A DNA stretch of 64,000 nucleotides from an uncultured Gaiellaceae bacterium (GCA_963732995.1 CAVTBS010000009.1:64618-128617), one strand, 5' to 3'; positions 5,125 through 40,914 are shown, counted from the stretch's first letter. A program made the numbers and translations. Notes: a model not told the origin generated them from the letters alone.

Positions 5125-5967
5125 CTAGCGCTTCGTGCGCCGCTTCCGCGCGGTCGCCTTGCGGCCGGCCGGCGGGCGCTTCGCGCGGACGGAGCCCTTG
5201 CGCTTCTTCGCGGCGTCGACGGAGGCTTTGAGCGCGGCCAGCAGGTCGGCCGGCTCCTCGTCCTCGGCGGCGGGCACGGCGGTGATCGTCTCGCCCTTCT
5301 GCTTCGCCTTGATCAGCTTCAGAAGCGTCTCGCGGTAGGTGTCCTCGTACCGCTCGGGCTCGAAGCTCCCCTTGAACTGGCCGATCAGGGCGGTCGCCAT
5401 CTTCAGCTCCGCCGCGGGCACCTTGGCCTTCCTCGGCGCGATTTCCTTCGCAGGCCGGATCTCGTCGTGGAAGAAGAGCTTCTCGAGCGTGATCACGCCC
5501 GCGCGGATCCGCAGACAGCCCAGGTGTTGCTTGTCGCGCATCACGTACTTGCCGACTGCCGCGAGGCCGGTGTCCTCCATTGCCTGGCGCAGGAGCGAGT
5601 AGACCTTCTCGCTGCCGTCCTGCGGCCCCAGGTAGTAGGTGCGCTCGAAGTAGATCGGGTCGATCTCCTCGTACGGGACGAAGTCGGAGATCTCGATCGA
5701 CTTGACGCCCTCGGTCTTGGCGGCGGCGAAGTCCTCGTCGGTGAGGATGACGAGCTCGTCCTTCTTCACCTCGTACGCCTTCACGATCTCCTCGTCCGGG
5801 ACGGGCTCGTTCTCGGCCTTGCAGACCTTCTGGTAGCCGATCCGGCCGCCGTCCGGCTCGTGGACGAGGTGGAAGCGGAGGTCGGACTCGTCGATCGCGC
5901 TGTACATCCGCACCGGGACGTTGACGAGCCCGAACGAGATCGTGCCGGTCCAGATCGCTCGCGGCAT
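5125..5967 (-). CDS. ku: non-homologous end joining protein Ku
   Basis: MPRAIWTGTISFGLVNVPVRMYSA... is the canonical bacterial Ku N-terminus. The C-terminal tail is basic. Confidence 0.95.
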   Translation of the reverse strand: MPRAIWTGTISFGLVNVPVRMYSAIDESDLRFHLVHEPDGGRIGYQKVCKAENEPVPDEEIVKAYEVKKDELVILTDEDFAAAKTEGVKSIEISDFVPYEEIDPIYFERTYYLGPQDGSEKVYSLLRQAMEDTGLAAVGKYVMRDKQHLGCLRIRAGVITLEKLFFHDEIRPAKEIAPRKAKVPAAELKMATALIGQFKGSFEPERYEDTYRETLLKLIKAKQKGETITAVPAAEDEEPADLLAALKASVDAAKKRKGSVRAKRPPAGRKATARKRRTKR

Positions 5968-6052
5968 GTGATCTCAACGGTGGAGCGATTGATTCGGATT
6001 CGGCACGAAGCCGTTGCGCTCTCGTTGCACATCGCGGCGTAGCGTGGCCGGC

Positions 6053-28637: not shown

Positions 28638-30211
28638 CGCCGTCGGCGTCGAGGCGCTCCAGCAGGAGCTGAGCGTCCCGGCGGCCGCAGCCCGCGAGGT
28701 CGCGGAAGCGGGCGAGCGTGATCTGGCCGGCCGCCGCGCACTCCTCGAGCACGAGCGCCCGTGCCCGCTCGTAGGCCGACGCCGAGACCGCCCAGCCGTC
28801 GCCGAGCCGGACGAGCCTGCCCGCGCGCTCGAGGTAGCGGGCCAGCTCCGAATCCTCCGCCCTGGCGGCACCGGGCTCCGCCGCCGCCAGCGCCGCCGCC
28901 AGCTCCTCCGCCTCGGCGGCGCGGTCACCGAGGTCGCCGGTCGTGCCGGGCCGGTAGAGCAGTCGAGCCGCGCCGCTCGAAGGGAAGCCGCGCCAGGACC
29001 TCCTTCGCCCAGGGCTCGGTCGGCGCCGGCGTGCCCGGGTCGAGCGGGTCGGCTCGGTCGATCGCCTGCTCGAGCGCGGCCCGGAGCTCGGCCAGCCACT
29101 CGTCCGAGAAGCGCCACGCGCCGTCGACGAGCGCCGGTGCATGGACACGCGTCTCGCCGCGGCGCGCCTGCTCGAAGCGGGCCGGGTCGGAGTGCCGGAC
29201 GGGGACGGGGTCGAGCACGGTCCCACCGCCGACCGTCGTCTCGTCGCGGAGCACGACCCGGTCGCCGCGCGCGGCGACGACAGGCGCTGCGAGTCGCAGC
29301 TGGGCGAAGCCGCCCGCCCTGACGACGCGGGCGGGCACGGCGGCAGTGCCGTGGTGGACGTGGAGGCGCGCTCCCTCGGCGATCGGTGTCAGCTCCTCCA
29401 GCGTCACGTCCAGGCGGTAGCTCGGCCTGAAGGTTTCGGGGGCGACGAGCACGTCGCCGCGCCGCAGGTCGGTGCGGTCGACCCCCGGCAGCGCGAGCGC
29501 GACGCGCTGCCCCGGCTCCGCCCGCTCGACGGCCCGGTCGTGCACCTGGACGCTCCGGACTCGGACGTCGCGACCGGCGGGCTCGGCGCGAAGCACATCG
29601 CCCTCGCCGACGGTCCCGGACCAGAGCGTCCCGGTCGCGACCGTCCCGATCCCGCGCAGTGAGAAGACCCGGTCGACGTGGAGGCGCGCCGGCTCGGAGA
29701 GATAGTTGCTGTCAGCAACTAAGTCCGCAGCGCGCGTGAGCGCAGCACGGAGCTCGTCGAGCCCGACGCCGGTCTTCGCGCTCACCGGAACGGCCTCGGC
29801 CTCCGGGACGAGCTCCGCCGCCTCCTCGAGCGCCAGCGCGAGCGTCTCCTCGTCGACCGCATCGGACTTCGTCACCGCGACCACGCCGTGCTCGATCCCG
29901 AGCAGGCGGATGATCGCGAGGTGCTCGTGCGTCTGCGGCCGCGCGCCCTCGCCGGCATCGATCACGAGCAGGAAGAGGTCGATCCCCGTCGCCCCGGCGA
30001 CCATGTTGCGGACGAAGCGCTCGTGCCCCGGCACGTCGACCAGCGAGAGCCGCTGCCCGTCCGGCAGGTCGAGCGGGGCGTAGCCGAGGTCGATCGAGAT
30101 CCCGCGCCGCTGCTCCTCGGGGAGTCGGTCGGTGTCCTTCCCGGTCAGTGCCCGCACGAGCCACGTCTTGCCGTGGTCGATGTGCCCGGCGGTTCCTACC
30201 GTAAGCGGCAT
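28573..30211 (-). pseudogene. selB: selenocysteine-specific elongation factor SelB, frame-disrupted as assembled (1 extra nt near 28960-28980)
   Basis: [16 protein letters not shown]...DVPGHERF...TKSD GTPase domain and domains II-III lie in ORF 28925..30322. The winged-helix C-terminus (LLYRPGTTGDL...ITLARFRDLAGCGRRDAQLLLERLDADGVTRRVGE) lies in ORF 28573..29226. Total span is 3n+1 nt. Confidence 0.85.
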
Positions 30212-30363
30212 CTCGCGCCCCTGGCCGGCGCCGGCTCCCGCCGGGCGGAGCCCGGCTCCGCCGGTGCCTGACGCCGCTCGCGGCGCTCCGGCCGCAGGCC
30301 CGTACCGCCGTACTGTTCCCACGGCCTACGCACCGCGAGCGGCGCCCCAGGAACGCGAGACCG

Positions 30364-31638
30364 TCACGCCAATCTGACTCGAGCGACCGCCCGGGCGACC
30401 TCGTCGGCCTCGGCGTCGGTGAGGGTGCGGCAGTCGAGCAGCGTGCGGCCGTCGCGGACGACGGCGATCACCGGCGGGTCATGGGCGCGCAGCGGCGCCG
30501 CCAGCTCCTCGGCGACCGAGCAGGCGAAGCTCGGCAGCTCGGCGAGCGGGAGGGCGCCGCCGCCGACGCGGGCAACCGTCTCCTCGACGGCGCCGTCCGC
30601 CGCCCGCGCAAGGCGCTCCGCGCGGTCCCGGACGGCGTCGACCGGCTCGCGCAGCATCCGCAGCACCGGGATCTCGTCCGGCGAGTCGAGATAGAGGAGC
30701 AGCGTGCCCTCGAGCGCCGCGAGCGTCAGCTTGTCCGAGCGCAGGGCGCGATGGAGCGGGTGCCGGCGCAGCCGCTCGATCAGATCGGCGCGGCCGGCGA
30801 CGATGCCCGCCTGCGGGCCGCCGAGGAGCTTGTCGCCCGAGAAGCAGACGAGGTCGGCGCCCGCCGCGAGGGCGGCAGCAGGCGTCGGCTCGCCGTCGAC
30901 GTCGACGAGCGCGCCGGAGCCGAGGTCGTCGAGGAGCGGCAGCTCGTGGCGGCGCGCGACGGCCGCGAGCTCGTCGAGGCGCGGCTGCTCGGTGAAGCCG
31001 ACGACGCGGAAGTTCGACTGGTGGACGCGCAGGAGCAGCGCCGTGTCCGGCCCGACCGCGTGCTCGTAGTCGGCGGCGCGGGTCCGGTTCGTCGTCCCCA
31101 CCTCGACGAGCCGGGCTCCGGAGCGGACGAGCACGTCGGGGATCCGGAATCCGTCGCCGATCTCGATCAGCTCGCCGCGCGAGACGACGACCTCACGCCC
31201 CTCCGCGAGCGCGGCGAGCGCCAGCAGCATCGCCGCAGCGTTGTTGTTGACGACGATCGCATCCTGTGCGCCCGTGAGCCGGCGCAGCAACGGCGCCAGA
31301 TGGTCCTGGCGGGAGCCGCGTGAGCCCGAGGAGAGGTCGTACTCGAGGTTGGAGTAACCGCTCGTGTCGGCGATCCGTTCGAGCGCGGCCGCGGCGAGCG
31401 GCGCGCGGCCGAGGTTCGTGTGCACGAGCACGCCGGTCGCGTTCAGGACCCGGCGGAGCGCCGGCCGCCGTGCCGTGGCGAGCGCCTGCTCGAGCCGCAC
31501 CCGCAGGTCGCCGGGCTCGGCGCCCGCCCGGATCTCCTCGCGCGCCCGCTCGAGCACGTCCCGGGCGGCCGCGACCGCGAGCGGGTCGGCGGTGCCGCGA
31601 ACGAGCTCGTCGACGGAGGGAAGATCCTGCAATCTCAC
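30364..31638 (-). CDS. selA: L-seryl-tRNA(Sec) selenium transferase SelA
   Basis: LPSVDELV N-terminus, [46 protein letters not shown] and [13 protein letters not shown] (PLP Lys). GTG 31638 is preferred because ATG 31704 would overlap the divergent VanW gene. Confidence 0.92.
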
Positions 31639-31681
31639 GGAAAACGAGTGTAGTCCGGCCGGAGCCGCTACCTTGCCAATC

Positions 31682-33361
31682 GTGAGACGTGTGGGGGTGA
31701 TCACGGCGTCGGTGCTCGCGATCGCGGCCGTTCTGGCCGTCGCCGCGGTGGGTGCGCGCGACGCGTACTACTGGGACCGGCCGCTGCCCGGCGTCGAGCT
31801 GCGCGAGGCCGGCCTGCAGGAGCCCGTGCGCATCGTCGTCGGTGAGCGGGAGTACGACGTCCGGCCGGGCGAGGTCCTCAGCCTCGACAGCACGGCGACC
31901 GAGCAGGCGCTCTGGGACGCCGGCCGCACCAGCTTCACCGGCCGGATCCGGCAGCTCGTCGACCCGAGCCCGCCGAAGCTCGTCGTCGATCCGGTGCTCG
32001 AGACGCGGCCCGGGGCCGACCAGATCGCGGAGGAGATCTCCGCCTCGCTGCCGAAGCCGCGGCGGGCCCAGGTCGTTGCGCGTGACGGCTTCCGCGTGAT
32101 TCCGTCCCGCCCGGGTGACGCGATCGCCCCGACCCAGCTCGCCGACTCGCTCGCGCAGGCCTCGCTGACGGGCGTGCGGACGCTGCGCCCGGCGCTGACC
32201 CACGTCGATCCCGAGCTCACGACTGCCGCCGCCGAAGCCGCCGTCGACGAGGCGGAGGAACTGGTCGACGAGCCGGTGACGCTCGAGTTCAAGGGTGAGG
32301 ACGTCGGCGCGCTGGCTCCCGCGCGGCTCGTCAAGCTGCTCCGGTTCCGGCCCGCCGGCGAGCGCTTCCGCGTCTCCTTCCATCCCGAGCGCATGGCCAA
32401 GGCGGTCGAGCCGATGCTGAAGCCGTGGCGAGCCCGAGCCGTCAATGCCCGCTTCGTCGTCGACGGGAGGCAGGTGCGGATCCGGCCGTCGCGTCCGGGT
32501 CTCGCCGTCGACGGCCGGTGGGTCGCCGACTCCGTCGCGGCCGCCGCGGCCGCGCCGACGCATCGTGCCTCGCTGCGGCTGAAGCAGATCCGCGCCGACC
32601 TGACCACCCGCGAGGCCGAGCGCCTCGGGATCCGCGAGCGCATCTCCACCTTCACGACCGACATGGGCACGTCGTCGTCGAACCGGATCCACAACGTGCA
32701 GCTGATGGCGCAGTACATCGACGGCACGGTGATCAAGCCCGGCGACACGTTCTCGTTCAACGACCGCGTCGGTCCCCGGACGGTCGAGCGAGGCTTCCGC
32801 GAGGGTCAGATGATCATCGGCTCGCTCCTCCTGCCCTCGATCGGCGGCGGCGTTTGCCAGACCGCGACGACGCTCTTCAACAACGCCTTCGAGCTCGGGC
32901 TGCCGATCGTCGAGCGCCACAACCACAGCTTCTACATCTCGCACTACCCGATGGGCCGCGACGCCACCGTCTCGTGGGGCGGGCCGGACTTCGTCTTCAA
33001 GAACGACCTGAAGACCGGGATCCTGATCACGACGAGCTACACCAGCTCGACGCTCACGTTCTCGTTCTTCGGCACCGACCCGGGGCGGCGCATCGTCGCG
33101 ACGACGGGCGAGCGGTCGAACTGGCGCTCGCCGCAGACGACCTACGCGCTCGACCCGTACGCACCGCGCGGATCGGTGCGCACGGTCGCCGGCTCGAACC
33201 AGTCAGGCTTCGACGTCACCGTCACCCGCAAGGTCTTCGAGGACGGGAAGCTGCTGCGCCAGGACGCGACGACGAGCAACTACATCGCCGTCGGCCCGAC
33301 CGCGATCTACGGCCCGGGCCGCTCGATCCCCGGCCCGTACTTCGTCCTGCCGCGGGTCTAG
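31682..33361 (+). CDS. VanW family protein
   Basis: N-terminal TM. C-terminal motifs GTVIKPGDTFSFNDRVGPRTVERGF...GGGVCQTATTLFNA...ERHNHSFYISHYP. Start is GTG 31682. Confidence 0.88.
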   Translation: MRRVGVITASVLAIAAVLAVAAVGARDAYYWDRPLPGVELREAGLQEPVRIVVGEREYDVRPGEVLSLDSTATEQALWDAGRTSFTGRIRQLVDPSPPKLVVDPVLETRPGADQIAEEISASLPKPRRAQVVARDGFRVIPSRPGDAIAPTQLADSLAQASLTGVRTLRPALTHVDPELTTAAAEAAVDEAEELVDEPVTLEFKGEDVGALAPARLVKLLRFRPAGERFRVSFHPERMAKAVEPMLKPWRARAVNARFVVDGRQVRIRPSRPGLAVDGRWVADSVAAAAAAPTHRASLRLKQIRADLTTREAERLGIRERISTFTTDMGTSSSNRIHNVQLMAQYIDGTVIKPGDTFSFNDRVGPRTVERGFREGQMIIGSLLLPSIGGGVCQTATTLFNNAFELGLPIVERHNHSFYISHYPMGRDATVSWGGPDFVFKNDLKTGILITTSYTSSTLTFSFFGTDPGRRIVATTGERSNWRSPQTTYALDPYAPRGSVRTVAGSNQSGFDVTVTRKVFEDGKLLRQDATTSNYIAVGPTAIYGPGRSIPGPYFVLPRV

Positions 33362-33365
33362 TCCG

Positions 33366-34070
33366 TCACTGCGCGTCGGCCTTCTCCGGCGAGGCCGGAG
33401 ATTCCGCGTTCCGCTCGTCGTAGCTCTCGACGACGATCCGGACGGCCTCGGCTGGGTCGTCGGTGACGTGCAGGAGCTCGACGTCCTCGGGCGAGACCAT
33501 CCCGTCCGCGAGCAGTTCGCCGTCGACCCAGGCGAGCAGCTCCCGCCAGTAGTCGGAGTCGAAGAGGACGACGGGGAAGTCGAGCACCTTGCCGGTCTGG
33601 ATCAGCGTCAGCGCCTCGAACGCCTCGTCGAGCGTGCCGAAGCCGCCGGGGAAGATGACGAACCCCTCGGCCGCCTTCACGAACATCGTCTTGCGGGCGT
33701 AGAAGTGCTTGAACGTCATCGAGATGTCGCAGTACGGGTTGACGCCCTGCTCGTGGGGAAGCGTGATGTTGAAGCCGACCGAGAGCCCACCGCCTTCCTT
33801 GCAGCCGCGGTTCGCCGCCTCCATCACGCCCGGGCCGCCGCCGGTGACGACCGCGAAGTGCGCCTCGGCGAAGAGCTTCGCCGTCGCCCGCGCCTGCTCG
33901 TACGGGCGGCTGCTCTCCCCGACGCGGGCCGACCCGAAGATCGAGACGGCCGGCCTGTCGATCTCGAGCACCTTCTGGAAGCCGCCGAGGAACTCGGACG
34001 CGATCACCGCGACGTCGTTCTGGAGGTCGTCGTGCGTCCGCTCCAGCATCCGCCGCTCGTTCGAGGCCAC
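33366..34070 (-). CDS. LOG family (TIGR00730) nucleotide phosphoribohydrolase
   Basis: VSIFGSAR...VVTGGGPGVMEAANRG...PGGFGTLDE motifs. Confidence 0.9.
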   Translation of the reverse strand: MASNERRMLERTHDDLQNDVAVIASEFLGGFQKVLEIDRPAVSIFGSARVGESSRPYEQARATAKLFAEAHFAVVTGGGPGVMEAANRGCKEGGGLSVGFNITLPHEQGVNPYCDISMTFKHFYARKTMFVKAAEGFVIFPGGFGTLDEAFEALTLIQTGKVLDFPVVLFDSDYWRELLAWVDGELLADGMVSPEDVELLHVTDDPAEAVRIVVESYDERNAESPASPEKADAQ

Positions 34071-34074
34071 CCGC

Positions 34075-34911
34075 TTAGATGTCCCGTTCGACGAAGGTGC
34101 CGCTCATCCCCAGGGTCAGGAGCGCGGCGAGCACGATGTAGGAGACCCCGGTGATCCAGCGCTGCGCCGGCGTCACCTGGTAGTACGCCTCGCGTTCAGG
34201 GTCGGCCCGGTGCTGCCAGCGACGCCACGACTCGAGGCCGCCGAGGACGAGGATCAGGATCAGGATCGGGTTCGGCGCCAGGATCGTGAGCCCGACCAGG
34301 AGCAGCAGACCGACGATCCAGAGCGCGGGATGGATCGCGGCGACGATGCGGCCGCCGTCGAGCGGCGAGATCGGCGCCAGGTTGAAGAGGTTGAGGAAGA
34401 AGCCGGTGAAGGCGAGCGCGACCAGCAGGTCGGAGTCGAACCACTCGCCGAGGCCCCAGACGGCGGCCGCGCCGAGACCGCCGAGGATCGGTCCGGCGAT
34501 CGCGACCTTCGCCTCGTTCCACGCGTCGTCGGGGAGCTGCTTGAGCGTGATCAGGGCGCCGAGGAAGGGGATGAACATCGGCGCGGACACCGGCAGCCCC
34601 TGGTGCTTCGCCTCGGCGACGTGGCCCAGCTCGTGGATCAGGATCAGGAGGACGAAGCCGATTGCGAACTGCCAGCCCCAGAAGAGCGCGTAGGCGGCGA
34701 TCGAGACGAGCATCGAGCCGGCGACCGTGAAGAGCTTGAACTTGAAGATCGCCGCGAAGACGAACTTCAGCTTCCAGATCAGGAAGCCGACGGCGGCGAT
34801 CGGCGCCCAGAGCTTGCGCAGGACGTCGCCCACGGTCGTCGGACGCTTGATCGGGGAGTAGTCGTGCGGCGGCTCCTCGGCCTCGCGCGGCGCGTACGGG
34901 TCGTAACTCAC
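34075..34911 (-). CDS. site-2 protease family (M50) membrane metalloprotease
   Basis: Polytopic membrane protein with HELGH and NLFNLAPISPLDGG motifs. Confidence 0.85.
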   Translation of the reverse strand: MSYDPYAPREAEEPPHDYSPIKRPTTVGDVLRKLWAPIAAVGFLIWKLKFVFAAIFKFKLFTVAGSMLVSIAAYALFWGWQFAIGFVLLILIHELGHVAEAKHQGLPVSAPMFIPFLGALITLKQLPDDAWNEAKVAIAGPILGGLGAAAVWGLGEWFDSDLLVALAFTGFFLNLFNLAPISPLDGGRIVAAIHPALWIVGLLLLVGLTILAPNPILILILVLGGLESWRRWQHRADPEREAYYQVTPAQRWITGVSYIVLAALLTLGMSGTFVERDI

Positions 34912-34968
34912 GCGCTCAGAGTACTCATCGCCCTTCCGGTCGCCTCCCCCGGCCGTGCACCCGCCTTC

Positions 34969-34997
34969 TTGAGCGACGCCTGAGTGTTCCTTGAGCG
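34969..34997 (+). promoter_or_regulatory. three direct heptamer repeats at 11-bp spacing (TTGAGCG, CTGAGTG, TTGAGCG), candidate SARP operator
   Basis: Repeat starts are at 34969, 34980 and 34991. They resemble the TCGAGCG-type heptamers bound by SARP activators. They lie 44-72 nt upstream of ATG 35041. Confidence 0.4.
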
Positions 34998-35040
34998 GCG
35001 GGCGTCACCGTGAGCGCATCACTCGGAGAGGAGAGGAGAG

Positions 35041-35223
35041 ATGACCGGACAGTCCAGGATTCGAAGATCGCTCTCGATTGCCGGGGCGACCTGCTTCACC
35101 GCCCTCGCCCTGTTGGCGGTGGGGACTCCGGGGGCCGCCGACGCCTCCGGTGACCGCGGCAACTGCGATCTATACGGGTGGAGCGGCTTCCTGGCCGGAC
35201 ACTGGGGCGGCGACTGTCGGTGA
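35041..35223 (+). CDS. small secreted peptide precursor (60 aa; predicted 25-aa mature peptide with two Cys)
   Basis: GGAGAGGAGAGGAGAG is the strongest SD-like stretch I saw, directly before the ATG. Signal peptide MTGQSRIRRSLSIAGATCFTALALLAVGTPGAADA. Mature SGDRGNCDLYGWSGFLAGHWGGDCR. GC3 is mostly high. The last 54 nt overlap the convergent regulator. Confidence 0.5.
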   Translation: MTGQSRIRRSLSIAGATCFTALALLAVGTPGAADASGDRGNCDLYGWSGFLAGHWGGDCR

Positions 35224-37914
35224 GTTGAGCACCTCCTCGAGGACGTCGTCGGGCGCCGCCTCCCCGGCCGCGAACGCCTCGCCGTAGCCGGCGTCGCCGA
35301 GCGCGGCCCGCAGGCGCCCGGCGAGGTCGTCGAGGAACTCCTGCTCCTGCCAGTCGATCGAGGCGCCCGTCTGCTGCCGGATCCCGGATGCCGCACCGAG
35401 GAGCCGTGTCGCGAGCGCCAGCTCCCCGGCGTGCTCGTGGGCAGGCGCGAGCCACACGCAGCAGGACGCGAGCCGGTCGCGGAAGCCGAGTCGTATGTAG
35501 AGCTCCATGCTCTCTCGCAGCTGCGCGCGGCCGGTGTCGTAGCGGCGGAGGCGCAGGTTCATGTCGCCGAGCCCCAGCAGCGCGCCGGCGAGGTACTCGC
35601 GGTGGTCGGCGCGACGAGCGGATTCGGCGCTCTCCTCGTAGATCGCAGCACCGCCCTCGTAGTCCTCGAGCTCGGCAGCAACCACGCCGAGATTGGAGAG
35701 CGCGAGTGCGAGGTGAGCGTCGTTCCCGAGTGTCCGGGCGAGGTCGGCGCTCTGCTCCCACCACTCGCGCGAGCCCTCCCGGTTGCGGCGGCTGTACTCG
35801 ATGCACCCGAGCAGGATCAGCAGGCGGTAGCGCTCGTCCTCGTCGACCGCTCCTGCGAGTAGCGGCAGGGCGGCCTCGGCTCGCGGGCCCGCGAGGTCGA
35901 AGTCACCCTGGCGCCATTCGAGGGTCGCGAGCTTCCGCAGAACCTGGGCACGCAGCAGCGGCTCGATGTCAGCGGTGGAGGCACTCTCGAGCGTCCCCTC
36001 GAGCCACGCACGGCCCTGCGCGAGATAGCCGCGGACGAGCCAGAAGTGCGCGAGGGCGGCGGCGAGCCGGAAGCGAAGCTCCGTCAGTTCGGCCGCACCG
36101 GCGAACGCGAGGGCCGCTCTGAAGTTGTCGTGCTCGCGCTCGAATGTCGCGTAGGCCTCGTCGACCGCCTCGCCGGGCAAAGCGTCGACGAGCTCGTCCG
36201 CAAGCTCGAGGAAGTGCTCGGCGTGTCGACGCCGCACTTCGTCGGCATCGGCCCGTTCGAGCAGCCTCTCGACCGCGTACTCGCGGATCGTCTGCAGCAT
36301 CCGGAAGCGGCCGTCATCGGCGCGTCGGAGCAGGCTCGCCTCGGCGAGACCGGTCAGCCCCGCGGCTCCGTCGGGTTCGCACACGGCCGCGACGCTGGGG
36401 CCGGTGAAGCCGCCGGCGAACGCGCCGAGCTCGGCAAAGAGTTGCTGTTCGGCCGGAGCGAGCAGGTCGTGGCTCCAGCTGATCGCCGAACGGAGCGTTC
36501 GCTGCCGTTCCGGGAGATCGCGTGCGCCTCGCGACGCGAGCTCGAGCCCGTCGTCGAGCGATTCGAGCAGCTCGGCCGACGTCAGATCGACAGTGCGGGC
36601 GGCCACGAGCTCGATTGCGAGTGGCAGTCCGTCGAGGCGCTCACAGATCTCCGTGACGAGCGCCGCCGAGGGCGGACGGCGTCCGGTGGCAGCGGCGCGT
36701 GTGAGGAAGAGCTCCTCCGCCTCCCCGGCGGGAAGGGGCGGCAGTTGCAGCTCGTGCTCGCCGTACACGTGGAGGCGCGCGCGGCTCGTCGTCAGGACGC
36801 GCAAACGAGGTGCCGTCTGCAGCAGCTCGCCGACGAGCGGGGCTGCGTCGAGCAGCTGCTCGAAGTTGTCCAGGAGCAGCAGCAGCTCGCGGCCGTGGAG
36901 CTCATCGTCCAGCGTCTCCTCGGCGAGCCCGAGCGCCTGAGCGATCGCGGACCGGACGAGTGCGGGATCGACGAGTGCTGCCAGTCCGACGAACCAGACG
37001 CCGTCGGTGAACACCTCGGCGAGCTCGTGCGCGGCTCGGAGCGCGACGCGCGTCTTGCCTACGCCGCCTGGCCCCGTCAGCGTGATCAGCCGACCCTCGC
37101 CGCGGAGCAGCCCGGTGACCGAGTCGACCTCCTCGCGCCGGCCGATGAACGCCGTCGGGGGCGCTGGCAGGTGGCGGCGCTCGCGCAACGACTCCGGCTC
37201 GACATCGAGCGCGGCGTCCTGACGGAGAATCGCGCCCTGGAGCGCACGGAGTTCGGCGCCCGGCTCCAGCCCGAGCTCGTCGAGTGACTCTCGGATTGCG
37301 GTGTACGCGTCGAGCGCCTCGGCCTGCCGGCCGGCGCGGTAGAGCCCGAGCATGAGCAGACCGCGTAGCCGCTCACGCAACGGGTGTTCCCGCACGAGCC
37401 GCTCGAGCTCCGCCAGGTCGACCGCGCGGCCGAGCGCAAGCGCGGAGTCTGCGCGATCCTCGAGCGCGGCCACGCGAAGCTCCTCGAGCCGTTCTCGTTC
37501 GGTCGCCGTTGCGAGGCTGTCGTCGAGCCCGGCGAGAGCCGGACCTCGCCAGAGCGCAAGCCCCGCTTCGAGCGAGGCCAACGCGTCCTCGTGGCGGCCC
37601 GATCCACGCTGTGAACGCGCGCTTTCGACGAGCTGCTCGAACTCGTCCGCGTCGACCTGCTCGGGGAGCAGCCGGTAGCCGTCGCCCTCCCGTTCGACTG
37701 CCAGCCCGGCCTTGCGCAGCTCCGAGACGTACACCTGCAGCGCGTGTGACGCGCTCGCGGGTGGCCGGTCGGCCCAGACCGCGTCCTGCAGCTGTTCGGC
37801 CGACACCGCCGAGCCGCGCGCGAGGAGCAGCGAGATCAGGAGCGCCCGCGGCTTCGCCCCGCCGCTGAACGGCTGCCCGCGAACCTCGAGCGTTCCGAGT
37901 ATCCGGAACTCCAC
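35170..37914 (-). CDS. AfsR/SARP-family regulator (OmpR-type winged helix, BTAD, NB-ARC ATPase, TPR)
   Basis: MEFRILGTLEVRG...ALQVYVSELRK..., a BTAD region, the P-loop GPGGVGKTRVA and a long TPR-like C-terminus. AGGAGGAGG SD precedes the GTG start. Confidence 0.9.
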   Translation of the reverse strand: MEFRILGTLEVRGQPFSGGAKPRALLISLLLARGSAVSAEQLQDAVWADRPPASASHALQVYVSELRKAGLAVEREGDGYRLLPEQVDADEFEQLVESARSQRGSGRHEDALASLEAGLALWRGPALAGLDDSLATATERERLEELRVAALEDRADSALALGRAVDLAELERLVREHPLRERLRGLLMLGLYRAGRQAEALDAYTAIRESLDELGLEPGAELRALQGAILRQDAALDVEPESLRERRHLPAPPTAFIGRREEVDSVTGLLRGEGRLITLTGPGGVGKTRVALRAAHELAEVFTDGVWFVGLAALVDPALVRSAIAQALGLAEETLDDELHGRELLLLLDNFEQLLDAAPLVGELLQTAPRLRVLTTSRARLHVYGEHELQLPPLPAGEAEELFLTRAAATGRRPPSAALVTEICERLDGLPLAIELVAARTVDLTSAELLESLDDGLELASRGARDLPERQRTLRSAISWSHDLLAPAEQQLFAELGAFAGGFTGPSVAAVCEPDGAAGLTGLAEASLLRRADDGRFRMLQTIREYAVERLLERADADEVRRRHAEHFLELADELVDALPGEAVDEAYATFEREHDNFRAALAFAGAAELTELRFRLAAALAHFWLVRGYLAQGRAWLEGTLESASTADIEPLLRAQVLRKLATLEWRQGDFDLAGPRAEAALPLLAGAVDEDERYRLLILLGCIEYSRRNREGSREWWEQSADLARTLGNDAHLALALSNLGVVAAELEDYEGGAAIYEESAESARRADHREYLAGALLGLGDMNLRLRRYDTGRAQLRESMELYIRLGFRDRLASCCVWLAPAHEHAGELALATRLLGAASGIRQQTGASIDWQEQEFLDDLAGRLRAALGDAGYGEAFAAGEAAPDDVLEEVLNSPTVAAPVSGQEAAPPV

Positions 37915-37980
37915 GACCCCTCCTCCTGAGCGTTCGTTCAGCCCATCTTGCGCCTTCCGCGACGCGGTTTCACGTAGAGC

Positions 37981-38619
37981 TCAGGAGCCCTGCCCGATCC
38001 ATTCTTCGCCGCCCTCGTAGACCTCCTTCTTCCAGAGCGGCACCGTCCCCTTGAGCGTGTCGATCGCTTCCTTGCACGCGGCGAGCGCGGCAGCCCGGTG
38101 CGGCGAGGAGACGGCGATCGCGACGCTCGGCTCGCCGATCTCGACCCTGCCGACGCGATGATGGATCGCGACCGCGAGCAGCTCGTGGCGCTCGGACAGC
38201 TCGCGCGCCAGGTCGGCCATGGACTGCTCCGCCATCCCCTCGTAGGCCTCGTACTCGAGGTAGAGGACGGCCCGGTCGCGCGAGCGGCTGCGAACCGTGC
38301 CGAGGAACGTCGCGACGGCGCCGGCCTCGTCGCTCTGGACTTCGCGGACGACCGCGTCGAGCGAGAGCGGCTCCGCGGTCACGCGGAAGTCGCCGCCGGA
38401 CACGGGCGGGATCAGCGCCACCTCGTCGCCCTCCGCGAGGGCCGTGGCGCTGTTCGCGTAGCGCTTGTTGACCGCGTAGAGGAGCCCGTCGGGCTCGTCG
38501 CCGAGAGCGAGTGCAGACCAGACGTCGCCGAGCGTGGCGCCGTCGGGAAGCGCGAGAGTGCGGGCGCCGGTGCCGGCGCGCTCACGCAGGCCGGCGAAGA
38601 GGCGGATGCTCACCTGCAT
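37981..38619 (-). CDS. molybdopterin synthase MoaD-MoaE fusion protein
   Basis: The N-terminal MoaD-like domain ends in ...ALIPPVSGG, followed directly by the MoaE domain (...ATFLGTVR...LEYEAY...VPLWKKE). Confidence 0.88.
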
Positions 38620-38683
38620 CGAGGGGAGCGTAGCCGCGCGTCCCCGGGTTGCCTCGCGGCACGTGTCATGTTACGTATGCCGC

Positions 38684-39343
38684 ATGCCGGTCTCAGCGCC
38701 CGCCCGGACGAACCTGAACGACCGCGTCTACGAGACCCTGAAGACGCGGCTCGTGCGCCGCGAGCTCGGCCCGGGCGAGAAGCTGAGCCTGCACGAGCTG
38801 GCAGCGACGCTCGGCGTCTCGCGCAGCCCGGTCCACCACGCGCTGACGCGGCTCGTCGCCGAAGGGCTGCTGACCGTGAAGTCGCGGCGCGGCTACTACG
38901 TGAACGCGCTGACCGAGGCCGCGATCGGCGACGGCTACGACGTCCGGCTCGCCCTCGAGCTGCAGGCGGCGGAAGGCGCCGTCGGCCGCGTCTCTCCGGA
39001 CGACCTGCGCCGGTTCCGCGAGCTGCACGGGGCGACCGCCGAGGCGGTCTCGCACACCGAGTGGGACTCCGCGAACGCGGCGTTCCACGAGTTCCAGGTC
39101 GACCTCGCCCACAACGCGCTCCTCTCGCGCTTCTATCGCGACCTTTCGATCAACCTGATGATGCAGGTGATCCGCGGCGGCAAGCTCGAGGGCGGGTCGT
39201 ACCTCCCGGAGGAGCACGGCGCGATCGTCGACGCGTACGAGGCCGCCGATCTCGAGGCGGCGCGCGCGGCGATCCGGGCGCACATCGCCACCGGGAGGCG
39301 GATCGCGCTCGACGCGATCGAGGCGGCGCACGGCGTCCTCTAG
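38684..39343 (+). CDS. GntR family (FadR/FCD-type) transcriptional regulator
   Basis: Winged HTH ([30 protein letters not shown]) plus a helical FCD-like C-domain. Start is ATG 38684. Confidence 0.88.
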
Positions 39344-39369
39344 TCACCTTCACCCGTAGCATCCGCTCC

Positions 39370-40914
<1,545 letters not shown>

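Follow-up and report, generated by a model that had tools for sequence, protein, structure and literature searches.

A lineage-specific small peptide gene with a predicted SARP-type promoter next to an AfsR-like regulator gene in an uncultured Gaiellaceae bacterium

Within a window of 64,000 nucleotides from an uncultured soil actinobacterium of the Gaiellaceae, the gene of a large AfsR-like SARP regulator and that of a 60-aa pre-peptide converge and overlap by 54 nt (35170-35223), with the gene for an M50 membrane metalloprotease reading away from the peptide gene on its other side (Table 1). The original prediction, made from the sequence alone, had singled out a 914-aa SARP-BTAD-NB-ARC-TPR regulator ending convergently on a 60-aa ORF with a conspicuous SD-like stretch. 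To the ORF it had ascribed a signal peptide with a RIRR n-region and an AxA site, a mature part bracketed by two Cys, no match to any family and, upstream, three heptamers exactly 11 bp apart that resemble SARP direct repeats. ORF, SD-like stretch, regulator domains and heptamers are all where it had put them, and the searches and comparisons described below bear out the remainder, the signal peptide as a predicted one. The conserved neighbours at related loci are SelB, SelA, VanW, LOG, M50, SARP, MoaE/ThiS, GntR and MCM; neither RiPP tailoring enzymes (radical-SAM, YcaO, lanthipeptide, lasso) nor a peptide importer is among them.

Table 1. Features of the locus, with positions counted from the first nucleotide of the window
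Feature	Position	Strand	Basis or remark
M50 (site-2-protease family) membrane metalloprotease gene, divergent neighbour	34075..34911	-	Pfam; syntenic in most loci
Predicted SARP box, 11-bp phase: TTGAGCG 34969-34975, CTGAGTG 34980-34986, TTGAGCG 34991-34997	34969..34997	+	Sequence
Predicted weak -10 hexamer CACCGT	35006..35011	+	8 bp (34998-35005) after third heptamer
Shine-Dalgarno stretch GGAGAGGAGAGGAGAG	35025-35040	+	Read in sequence; abuts ATG of small ORF
Small gene, 60-aa pre-peptide MTGQSRIRRSLSIAGATCFTALALLAVGTPGAADASGDRGNCDLYGWSGFLAGHWGGDCR	35041..35223	+	Translation; homologues; selection tests
Predicted Sec-type signal peptide, residues 1-35: n-region MTGQSRIRR, hydrophobic core, ADA/S (site between A and S)	35041..35145	+	Heuristic scan
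Predicted mature 25-aa peptide SGDRGNCDLYGWSGFLAGHWGGDCR, Cys42-x16-Cys59 loop	35146..35220	+	Family alignment core
Dual-use trinucleotide: CTA (Leu44 of peptide) on +, TAG (SARP stop codon) on -	35170..35172	.	CTA in 10/11 loci
AfsR-like large SARP regulator gene, 914 aa (winged helix, BTAD, NB-ARC/NOD, TPR)	35170..37914	-	Pfam, NCBIfam, PDB AfsR
Decayed second SARP box remnant (CTGAGCG, TTCAGCC, TTGCGCC, 8 bp, CGCGGT)	37926..37968	+	Points away from SARP start codon

The ORF is the founding member of an unnamed family that numbers 36 sequences when the window's own copy is included. The 35 homologues, of 50-72 aa, come from metagenomes, and gene callers had predicted them independently in many assemblies; searches of Pfam, NCBIfam, PADLOC and PDB with the peptide yielded no match to any. 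Of the 15 loci examined, 14 keep the ORF open and one, L012, has it broken by two frameshifts. Across the orthologous loci its ATG is conserved, nearly always with a GGAGG-like Shine-Dalgarno a few nt 5' of it (in L083 and L087 it is GAGGAG). The 14 further loci examined all have the peptide gene adjoining the 3' end of the corresponding AfsR-like SARP-NOD-TPR gene, while L067 has kept the SARP and M50 genes and lacks the peptide gene. Since all loci compared are of one Gaiellaceae lineage with conserved synteny, this co-occurrence of peptide and SARP may stem from descent and not from function. The GC3 of the small ORF is 0.80, as against about 0.93 in neighbouring genes.

Among the six frames, that of the small ORF is the only one free of stop codons and has the lowest pN/pS, 0.57 (bootstrap 0.45-0.71), the others ranging from 0.69 to 1.45. 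Purifying selection on it is moderate only, with pN/pS about 0.5-0.6. Because the homologues were called independently, because both ATG and Shine-Dalgarno are conserved and because the stop-free frame is the one with the lowest pN/pS, the small ORF is a real, conserved gene, found only in one lineage. Could it be a mere side effect of the regulator's C-terminus? The opposite is the case: the conserved part of the SARP stops at ...EEVL, just outside the small ORF, and the last 17 residues, which are encoded opposite the peptide gene, are neutral in their own frame. Over the 54 shared nt pN/pS is 0.50 in the peptide frame versus 1.00 in the SARP frame, with the opposite ordering in 211 of 5000 resamples of a paired bootstrap. 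Within the overlap one trinucleotide serves on both strands, being the SARP stop codon on one and a Leu codon on the other; over 11 confident genes of the window Leu is encoded by CTA in only 0.8% of cases, yet this codon is present at Leu44 in all but one of the 11 loci.

Features of n-, h- and c-regions were found in every one of the 36 members of the family by a heuristic scan. The n-region charge is +1 to +4, the hydrophobic 15-mer has a mean Kyte-Doolittle value of 1.6-3.1, and there is at least one site fitting the (-3,-1) rule, though the position of that site is not fixed across the family. The hydrophobic stretch is of 17-19 residues, AlphaFold2 gives a helix at residues 3-27, and the n-region, MNRQS.I, varies unusually little by the standards of signal peptides. 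For the core of the peptide AlphaFold2 gives no confident fold (pLDDT about 55). The predicted mature part is the more conserved part, with pN/pS 0.50, and its family core reads C-x3-4-W-...-C-R at the C-terminus; the two Cys are separated by 15-17 residues in 35/36 members, and 33 of the 36 end in CR. The features of its N-terminus suggest that the peptide is probably exported, and with so variable a site the product could, instead of being cleaved, stay anchored in the membrane. Two further export classes were considered and rejected. A lipoprotein would call for a lipobox, and L-[AS]-[GA]-C is not present: Cys18 is in the middle of the hydrophobic stretch, mostly follows Thr and is missing in 4 members. 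As to a Tat substrate (S/T-R-R-x-F-L-K), the RR pair is found only in the window's copy, relatives having IRA, IPS or IGT there.

Upstream of the peptide gene no sigma-70 consensus promoter was found. What is there is the tripartite heptamer pattern, matched once in the window where 0.24 matches are expected at up to 3 mismatches; a triple box of at least 19/21 with NANNNT 8 bp downstream arose in none of 100 Markov-shuffled windows. The triple box is conserved in 15 loci (the window and 14 further ones), the most divergent members included, with the consensus cTTGAGCG-N4-nnGAGCG-N4-cTTGAGCGG, and L088 has three perfect TTGAGCG repeats. Being unique in the window, not reproduced by shuffling and conserved in 15 loci, the box is more than chance. 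Its 11-bp phase is kept in 14 of them, the spacing being disturbed in L083, and A2 and T6 of the NANNNT hexamer stand 8 bp after the box in 14, the hexamer of the frameshift-ridden L012 being one base nearer. In L001 an inserted second SARP gene parts the M50 gene from the peptide gene and the box remains with the latter; loci in which a SARP gene takes M50's place as the divergent neighbour have the box too. In published SARP promoters the repeats recur at 11 bp (or 22 bp), and 8 bp separate the 3'-most one from the -10 (PMC10936776; PMC10972967); the afsS promoter has CACTGT as its -10 (PMC10936776). By this comparison the predicted promoter of the peptide gene has the published SARP layout and resembles that of afsS. 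Transcription would start near 35016-35020. The CACCGT hexamer is an addition to the original prediction.

The regulator has Pfam matches to Trans_reg_C (residues 14-68, 30.5 bits with a cut-off of 26.2), BTAD (residues 87-230, E = 2.8e-40) and NB-ARC (residues 262-482, 27.7 bits, cut-off 23.5), with AAA_16 also matched and TPR_12 (residues 736-806) slightly below its cut-off at 29.2 bits versus 30.1. It aligns continuously with full-length AfsR (PDB 8k60) over residues 13-830 at E = 1.4e-39, and its N-terminus with the AfsR SARP domain (8hvr) and with EmbR (2fez). Orthology to AfsR was rejected: against the NCBIfam equivalog NF053617 the score is 186.8 bits with a cut-off of 1430, that is, the architecture is the same and the protein is not the Streptomyces AfsR orthologue. 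A sub-threshold match to NF041717 (TPR protein, cyclophane RiPP biosynthesis; 69 bits, cut-off 1125) is explained by the generic STAND/TPR architecture.

Is it this regulator that acts at the box? In related loci a matching triple box is found beside the SARP start codon and is followed by a gene for a secreted collagen-like protein. The window contains no such collagen-like gene: it has been lost there, and its box has decayed. In L090 both boxes have shifted to TTAAGCG-type heptamers, and the recognition helix differs too (AGAAQALQVYASGLRR versus ASAAHALQVYVSELRK), one differing position corresponding to R92, a base-contact residue of AfsR; this covariation comes from a single lineage. When 79 large-SARP loci were scanned de novo, 22 triple-box promoters emerged, as against 1-4 in shuffles; most boxes directly adjoin the SARP gene and the heptamer is specific to each subgroup. 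The adjacent boxed targets of other large SARPs are a cupin-like protein, secreted proteins of about 155 aa and a 372-aa protein, so that a large SARP with an adjacent, putatively controlled target is a layout recurring across related loci. A second SARP paralogue is nearby in L001, L088 and L089, and there either SARP may be the binder of the box. Given the adjacency in 14/14 loci, the second matching box, the covariation in L090, the retention of the box in L001 and the de novo scan, the activator of the peptide promoter is most likely the adjacent AfsR-like SARP.

The reading that we favour, and hold to be fairly probable, is of a real lineage-specific peptide gene that is SARP-switched by its AfsR-like neighbour and has a product acting outside the cytoplasm, a new small-protein family, in other words, under a known kind of switch. 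A pre-peptide of ~60 aa with a Sec-type signal peptide would be made from the small ORF, and its functional part would be the C-terminal ~20-25 residues, which would form a loop rich in Trp and Gly between two Cys (C-x15-17-C-R) presumably joined in a disulfide; this segment probably acts outside the cytoplasm, whether released or membrane-held, and may serve in signalling or as an antimicrobial, as the original prediction had suggested. The promoter would be activator-dependent and without a usable -35, in place of which it would have the three TTGAGCG-type heptamers. With their 11-bp phase these would all face the same side of the helix, and 8 bp lie between the last of them and the weak CACCGT, a geometry that fits SARP proteins lying side by side on the DNA and recruiting RNA polymerase. 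We infer that the boxes are bound by the convergent SARP-NOD-TPR protein, whose ATPase and TPR modules would gate activation upon an input. Because a second matching box precedes the secreted collagen-like gene in related genomes, the ancestral unit would have been a switch acting locally on a small regulon of secreted or cell-surface products, and of that regulon the window keeps the peptide arm only.

How the product might act after synthesis admits other readings. With the helix left uncleaved it would be a signal-anchored single-pass protein, N-in/C-out, with an external loop of 25 residues modulating a membrane partner such as the M50 protease, an orientation that matches an M50 substrate or regulator. 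The length of the hydrophobic stretch, the single long helix predicted, the shifting (-3,-1) site and the well conserved n-region all suit this, as does the placing of the peptide gene divergent from M50 in most loci. There is a further likeness to MgrB, a small regulator-induced membrane peptide with periplasmic Cys that is a feedback inhibitor of PhoQ: in either case a product of ~50-60 aa has a single hydrophobic helix at the N-terminus and conserved Cys in a short external C-terminal part, and is expressed under a dedicated regulator, here a putative one. The two differ in that there is no sequence similarity, and the regulator here is cytoplasmic and without a membrane sensor partner. Anchoring is nonetheless a minority reading, unlikely if not negligibly so: every member has at least one Ala/Gly/Ser-rich cleavable site after a Pro-containing c-region, as is typical of cleaved actinobacterial signal peptides, and the link to M50 can be broken, the protease gene being displaced in L001 and kept without the peptide gene in L067; moreover, the M50 protein at this locus exists in two forms that share just 44% identity, and the peptide does not change along with them. 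A rather improbable reading has the exported peptide, whole or in part, as the ligand of the regulator's TPR sensor, with positive feedback through the SARP-activated promoter, the peptide being re-imported or else sensed after processing in which the neighbouring M50 protease might take part. Eep, which matures SHP and pheromone peptides, is of the M50 family. As in the RRNPPA quorum-sensing cassettes of Firmicutes (PlcR-PapR, NprR-NprX, Rap-Phr, Rgg-SHP; PMC9765709, PMC2441798, PMC7564271), a cytoplasmic TPR regulator is beside a gene for a small exported pro-peptide which, judged by the regulator-type box in its promoter, appears regulator-activated, the extreme C-terminus is the conserved part as in PapR and Phr peptides, and an M50 protease is nearby. 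The likeness is one of layout only. By Pfam and the AfsR alignment the regulator is a SARP/STAND protein, and its OmpR-type winged helix, BTAD and STAND ATPase are unrelated to the RRNPPA receptors, in which an HTH or phosphatase module is combined with TPR and a re-imported peptide is bound, so that membership of the locus in that group was rejected. Also against such a loop, the conserved neighbourhood has no importer gene, the peptide is longer and its two conserved Cys point to a structure that is stable outside the cell, M50 is separable and seems to be transcribed from a conserved leaderless-type promoter of its own, and large SARPs of the same layout adjoin targets that are ordinary proteins, which suggests a plain relation of regulator to target; in related loci the same SARP would drive the collagen-like protein as well.

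Two other readings have very little to recommend them. One is that of a RiPP precursor, its N-terminal leader followed by a Trp/His/Cys-rich core that enzymes from genes at other places in the genome would modify. The gene is short and precursor-like, its conserved C-terminal core is rich in Trp, His, Gly and Cys, and there is the weak NF041717 similarity of the SARP dealt with above; membership in a RiPP biosynthetic locus was rejected, given conserved neighbours that include no tailoring enzyme, and the N-terminus resembles a Sec signal peptide and not a RiPP leader. Equally remote is that the ORF is non-functional, an accident of the SARP 3' end and intergenic region, with the repeats serving the divergent M50-LOG operon or another regulator. 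Its low GC3, the moderate selection, the frameshifts in L012 and the absence from L067 could be so read, and the repeats are 58-86 bp upstream of the M50 start codon. They face the small ORF, however, at the canonical 8 bp from the -10, and stay with it when M50 is displaced or replaced by a SARP gene, while the ORF itself is open nearly throughout, was called independently 35 times with its start signals conserved, and is under selection in its own frame where the SARP tail is neutral.

The favoured reading, of an exported peptide switched by its SARP neighbour, has its closest known counterpart in AfsR-afsS of Streptomyces coelicolor, which the original prediction had invoked. As an analogy of layout the comparison stands; as homology, with the equivalog score given above, it does not. 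Shared are a SARP-NOD-TPR regulator (with an alignment of ~820 residues to AfsR), an adjacent gene of ~60 codons as direct target (here a predicted one), and 11-bp-phased direct repeats over the -35 region with a weak -10 8 bp on, CACCGT here and CACTGT in afsS. The differences are several: three TTGAGCG-type heptamers in place of the two 11-bp repeats of the afs box, a small gene that converges on the regulator's 3' end and overlaps the regulator gene, and a host of the class Thermoleophilia in place of Streptomyces. AfsS is cytoplasmic and lacks a signal peptide; the product here has a signal-peptide-like N-terminus and a two-Cys loop and gave no hit to any Pfam or NCBIfam model, and we claim no place for it among AfsS-type proteins. 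With the pathway-specific SARPs ActII-ORF4, DnrI and PimR the locus shares triple heptamers, TTGAGCG being one base off the TCGAGCG type that is classical for SARPs. Those regulators belong to gene clusters for antibiotic biosynthesis, whose operons they drive, whereas the neighbourhood here is housekeeping (SelA/SelB, LOG, MoaE, MCM) and the regulator would act on a small peptide gene, joined in relatives by the gene for a secreted collagen-like protein.

The small ORF, its Shine-Dalgarno stretch (GGAGAGGAGAGGAGAG at 35025-35040) and the heptamers at 34969, 34980 and 34991 all lie exactly where the original prediction had placed them, in a window of 71% G+C whose closest relatives are MAGs labelled Gaiellaceae (Thermoleophilia, Actinomycetota). 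The peptide gene and the gene for the adjoining large SARP regulator are convergent, with a 54-nt overlap. In the table, as in what follows, L numbers denote related large-SARP loci.

Positions of genes in the window and of heptamer boxes at related large-SARP loci
Feature	Position	Strand	Remark
SelB	28925-30322	-	
SelA	30364-31704	-	
VanW-like	31364-33361	+	
LOG-family protein	33366-34070	-	
M50 metalloprotease	34075-34911	-	
Small ORF (peptide gene)	35041-35223	+	
Regulator (large SARP)	35170-37914	-	
MoaE/ThiS fusion	37981-38619	-	
GntR regulator	listed ORF 38534-39343	+	overlaps moaE start; real start probably later
Methylmalonyl-CoA mutase	within ORF 38098-40914	+	
Intact second box, L087	4248-4290		
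Intact second box, L086	8888-8930		
Intact second box, L090	3847-3889		
Intact second box, L012 and L001	about 5946-5988	-	
Boxes beside related SARPs, L006, L008-L011, L017, L024	about 5972	-	
Boxes beside related SARPs, L015, L021	5288; 5265		
Boxes beside related SARPs, L022	5836	-	
Boxes beside related SARPs, L063, L066, L070	about 5800	-	

Is so short an ORF a gene? A single-sequence protein search returned only the peptide itself, and Pfam, NCBIfam, PADLOC and PDB profile searches were all blank, in keeping with the initial failure to assign it to any family. A related ORF is present at the same place in 4/4 syntenic SARP loci (L001, L002, L019 and L012, 76-79% identity), and a profile built from these four copies retrieved 33 further metagenome-assembly proteins of 50-72 aa, none with a Pfam domain or an informative name. 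Searched exhaustively with an HMM, 1.84 billion representative proteins gave three more divergent members only (P0037, also returned, is a spurious repeat protein), and a scan of JGI metagenomes with the peptide alignment gave one additional locus. The family, with the consensus MNRQSRIRxSLAVAxATCLAALAVLVPGAPGAxxxxDPGDCRLPAWTHVLTGHWGG(G)DCR, is genuine yet narrow. In codon alignments of 11 loci read in six frames, that of the peptide is the sole one free of stops and has the lowest pN/pS, 0.57 (bootstrap 0.45-0.71), with 0.69-1.45 for the remainder, so that the ORF is both conserved in relatives and under purifying selection; its strength is moderate, which is common where a signal peptide is joined to a short core. 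The initiator is ATG in every locus compared and is preceded in nearly every one by a GGAGG-type Shine-Dalgarno. GC3 of the peptide ORF is 0.80, the highest of its three codon positions and below the approximately 0.93 of neighbouring genes. Rfam gave nothing credible for 33000-39000.

At L012 (8688-8870, -) two frameshifts seem to interrupt the peptide ORF, with the conserved residues readable in the shifted frames; long-read indel errors or else recent decay would account for them, and in several of these assemblies the SARP and M50 genes are fragmented too, only about six loci having intact full-length SARP genes. The syntenic L067 (8400-8700; SARP 51% and window-type M50 84% identical) lacks the peptide gene, the 3' end of its SARP gene abutting the M50 start, and represents either loss of the gene or a state preceding its gain.

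The overlap raises the possibility, recognized at the outset, that the small ORF is a by-product of a SARP C-terminus that needs the opposing frame. SARP conservation stops at ...AAGEAAPDDVLEEVL, whose codons sit just outside the small ORF, and the 17 residues that follow to the end of the regulator differ among loci. Within the overlap pN/pS is 0.50 for the peptide frame versus 1.00 for the in-register SARP frame (in only 211/5000 paired bootstrap resamples was the peptide frame not the lower), and many substitutions change the SARP tail yet are silent for the peptide. Conservation of the SARP tail as the cause of the ORF is thereby ruled out. One codon serves both genes: Leu44 of the peptide is CTA in 10/11 loci (35170-35172 in the window), though CTA makes up just 0.8% of the Leu codons in 11 confident window genes, and its reverse complement is the TAG stop of the SARP gene. 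The three nucleotides are thus under double constraint, as a rare Leu codon and as a neighbour's stop codon at a convergent overlap, of which the locus provides a clean example; were this TAG absent, the SARP frame would continue through the remainder of the peptide gene.

The features of a signal peptide, at first noted for the window product alone, recur throughout the family, with an n-region of charge +1 to +4, a 17-19-residue hydrophobic segment and a Pro/Ala/Gly-rich c-region containing at least one (-3,-1)-compatible site (ADA|S in the window), each in 36/36 members. The conserved core, C-x3-4-W-...-C-R, is at the extreme C-terminus, with a Cys-Cys spacing of 15-17 in 35/36 members and a terminal CR in 33/36; the most divergent members have lost the GHW motif and kept both cysteines and the first Trp. 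AlphaFold2 with 33 sequences (mean pLDDT 64.9, core about 55) gives an N-terminal helix, residues 3-27, and a core without a confident fold. Lipoprotein and Tat export are ruled out on motifs, and there is no RiPP tailoring enzyme among the conserved neighbours. On these grounds, together with the signal-peptide features and the two-Cys core, we read the product as a putative Sec-exported peptide of some 25 residues that a disulfide would close; the main alternative is that the hydrophobic segment is retained and the product remains membrane-anchored. The predicted mature peptide would be roughly neutral rather than cationic, which makes a classical antimicrobial peptide slightly less likely.

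Large SARPs such as AfsR have been studied almost exclusively in Streptomyces, as switches of antibiotic production. The present regulator, of 914 residues, has the Pfam domains Trans_reg_C, BTAD, NB-ARC/AAA_16 and TPR_12, and its residues 13-830 align continuously with Streptomyces AfsR (PDB 8k60; E = 1.4e-39). It scores 186.8 against the 1430 cut-off of the NCBIfam AfsR equivalog, and is therefore an AfsR-like large SARP and not an AfsR orthologue. The likeness to afsR-afsS drawn in the original prediction accordingly holds for layout and regulator architecture and fails for orthology. As the closest known system, AfsR-afsS also has an adjacent small direct target and shares the promoter logic, but here the box is different, the genes are convergent and overlapping, and the product is apparently exported and unrelated.

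For the promoter, upstream regions of 12 loci were aligned and those of three more divergent loci read separately. The common architecture is cTTGAGCG-N4-nnGAGCG-N4-cTTGAGCGG, 8 bp, a NANNNT hexamer (CACCGT in the window), approximately 25 nt, GGAGG and ATG. The hexamer's A2 and T6 are kept in 14/15 loci, that of the frameshift-ridden L012 being offset by one base; the repeats are three perfect TTGAGCG in L088 and TTGAGTG, TTGAGCG and TTCAGCG in L089. The triple box occurs once in the window and its score is reached in 0/100 Markov-shuffled windows. A promoter scan found no sigma-70-type -35/-10 pair at the peptide gene. In SARP-dependent promoters the direct repeats are spaced at 11 or 22 bp and the one on the 3' side lies 8 bp from the -10; afsS, the target of AfsR, has a weak -10, CACTGT, and a poor -35 (PMC10936776); many SARP sites consist of three heptamers with 4-nt spacers (PMC10972967). 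Judged by its sequence, then, the region upstream of the peptide gene carries the published signature of a SARP-dependent promoter, which upholds the SARP-type reading of the heptamers and extends it to the orthologous loci.

The heptamers also lie upstream of the divergent M50 gene, and might be thought to serve it instead. Their canonical spacing faces the small ORF, however, and M50 has a hexamer of its own, TACTCT at 34918-34923 (-), conserved in nearly all loci 6 nt upstream of the GTG start and suggestive of a leaderless transcript; further, in L001 a 2.8-kb insertion containing a second SARP gene lies between M50 and the peptide gene, the repeats having stayed next to the latter. They are therefore assigned to the peptide gene. 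M50 itself occurs at this syntenic position in two forms some 44-54% identical, of 278 aa (window type) and 233 aa (L002 type; L002 8988-9689), with forms noted also at L019, L012, L080 and L082-L084. For the flanking LOG gene identity stays at 80-90% in most of them, and both M50 forms share roughly their first ten residues, which suggests allelic replacement or recombination; the peptide has no change matching the M50 form.

Which SARP acts at the box? In 14/14 further loci the peptide gene likewise sits at the SARP 3' end. Scanning for TTGAGCG-type repeats revealed a second triple box in most of the related loci extending as far as the SARP start. Starting some 12 bp past the start codon, this box points away from that codon, with a hexamer (GACGGT or GACGTT) 8 bp downstream; next come a conserved leader, a Shine-Dalgarno and the gene for a secreted collagen-triple-helix protein (N-terminus ...AIPSSSGAVNGCYEKxTGILRVIDxDAGKxC). 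In the window just 66 bp are left from SARP start to moaE stop, the second box (37926-37968) has decayed to CTGAGCG, TTCAGCC and TTGCGCC with its -10 lost, and there is no collagen-like gene. A shift of both boxes to heptamers of the TTAAGCG type is seen only in L090, whose SARP recognition helix is also the most divergent (AGAAQALQVYASGLRR versus ASAAHALQVYVSELRK), including at the position aligned with the AfsR base-contact residue R92; this being a single lineage, the covariation is suggestive and not conclusive. In L001, L088 and L089 the peptide gene is between two SARP genes, either paralogue being a candidate for the box. On this indirect evidence, and that of the wider scan below, the neighbouring SARP is most likely the activator of the peptide promoter.

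The second SARP-NOD-TPR paralogue, divergent from the peptide gene, is at L001 8896-11685 (+), L088 1-76 and L089 3-404. The collagen-like gene is deleted in L002, L082 and L086, where its Shine-Dalgarno is followed by a 34-codon ORF (MQWRYRRRRR...; L002 about 5800-5900, -; L086 8960-9064) running antisense into the moaE 3' end, probably a remnant. The peptide is not homologous to the two-Cys N-terminal segment of the collagen-like protein (hhalign probability 0.4%).

The arrangement is not peculiar to this family. A motif-free scan of 79 large-SARP loci for three similar heptamers in 11-bp phase with a NANNNT hexamer 8 bp downstream gave 22 matches versus 1-4 in shuffles, most directly adjoining the SARP gene ahead of a gene with a strong Shine-Dalgarno. 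Pairing of a large SARP with a boxed target next to it is therefore general, and the window peptide promoter is one case. Boxes of related SARPs are mostly divergent from the SARP start, ahead of one adjacent target gene, and the heptamer is specific to each SARP subgroup: GTAAGCG beside a cupin-like protein of 192 aa, TCTAGCG and TTTAGTC beside secreted proteins, GACAGCG beside a 372-aa protein in Pseudonocardia.

In the mechanism that we think likeliest, the SARP-NOD-TPR protein would respond to some input via its ATPase and TPR modules, and protomers bound side by side on the three heptamers would substitute for the absent -35 contact and recruit RNA polymerase. The mRNA, with a leader of about 22 nt, would be efficiently translated from its strong Shine-Dalgarno and the product then exported. 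Ancestrally the same switch would also have induced the collagen-like surface protein, pointing to a regulon of the cell surface or exterior. Since a terminator scan found none on the peptide strand after the ORF, activated transcription may, speculatively, continue into the 3' end of the SARP gene in antisense orientation, dampening the regulator.

Could the peptide be the regulator's own input? The layout calls to mind RRNPPA quorum-sensing cassettes, in having a TPR-containing regulator beside the gene for a small pro-peptide that is probably exported and conserved C-terminally, with an Eep-family protease nearby, and the cassette might by analogy be a cell-cell signalling module on a STAND/SARP scaffold, with the two-Cys peptide or a fragment of it as ligand of the TPR sensor. 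The M50 protease would help release the fragment, the box before the peptide gene would give positive feedback, and the second box would tie the signal to production of the collagen-like surface protein. We think this improbable: the regulator is not an RRNPPA member, and where other large SARPs have this layout their targets are ordinary proteins. If it were true, RRNPPA-like logic would have evolved independently outside Firmicutes, in a deep-branching and largely uncultured actinobacterial class, and a large-SARP TPR domain would have its first ligand.

Our literature searches turned up neither this peptide family nor SARPs in Gaiellales/Gaiella, and nothing relevant on a SARP-linked secreted peptide. 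That the peptide founds a new small-protein family, and the locus a new form of the SARP-plus-small-target theme, has solid computational support. Should the peptide be a signal or extracellular effector, SARP biology would reach beyond secondary metabolism and take in surface proteins and secreted peptides. More generally, related large SARPs in Thermoleophilia have subgroup-specific triple-heptamer boxes beside their genes, each fronting one or two targets, which allows simple prediction of regulator-operator-target triplets in uncultured Actinomycetota.

In L018 (5667-5880), from the same MAG as L012, a box GTGAGCG/TTGAGGG/GTGAGCG with GATCCT after it precedes an ORF of 40 codons, hydrophobic at its N-terminus (MSRLIGIITTLSIAAAALAPIASP...), and a strong hairpin, the whole set lying immediately ahead of the gene for a SARP paralogue; this may be another SARP-small-peptide pair.
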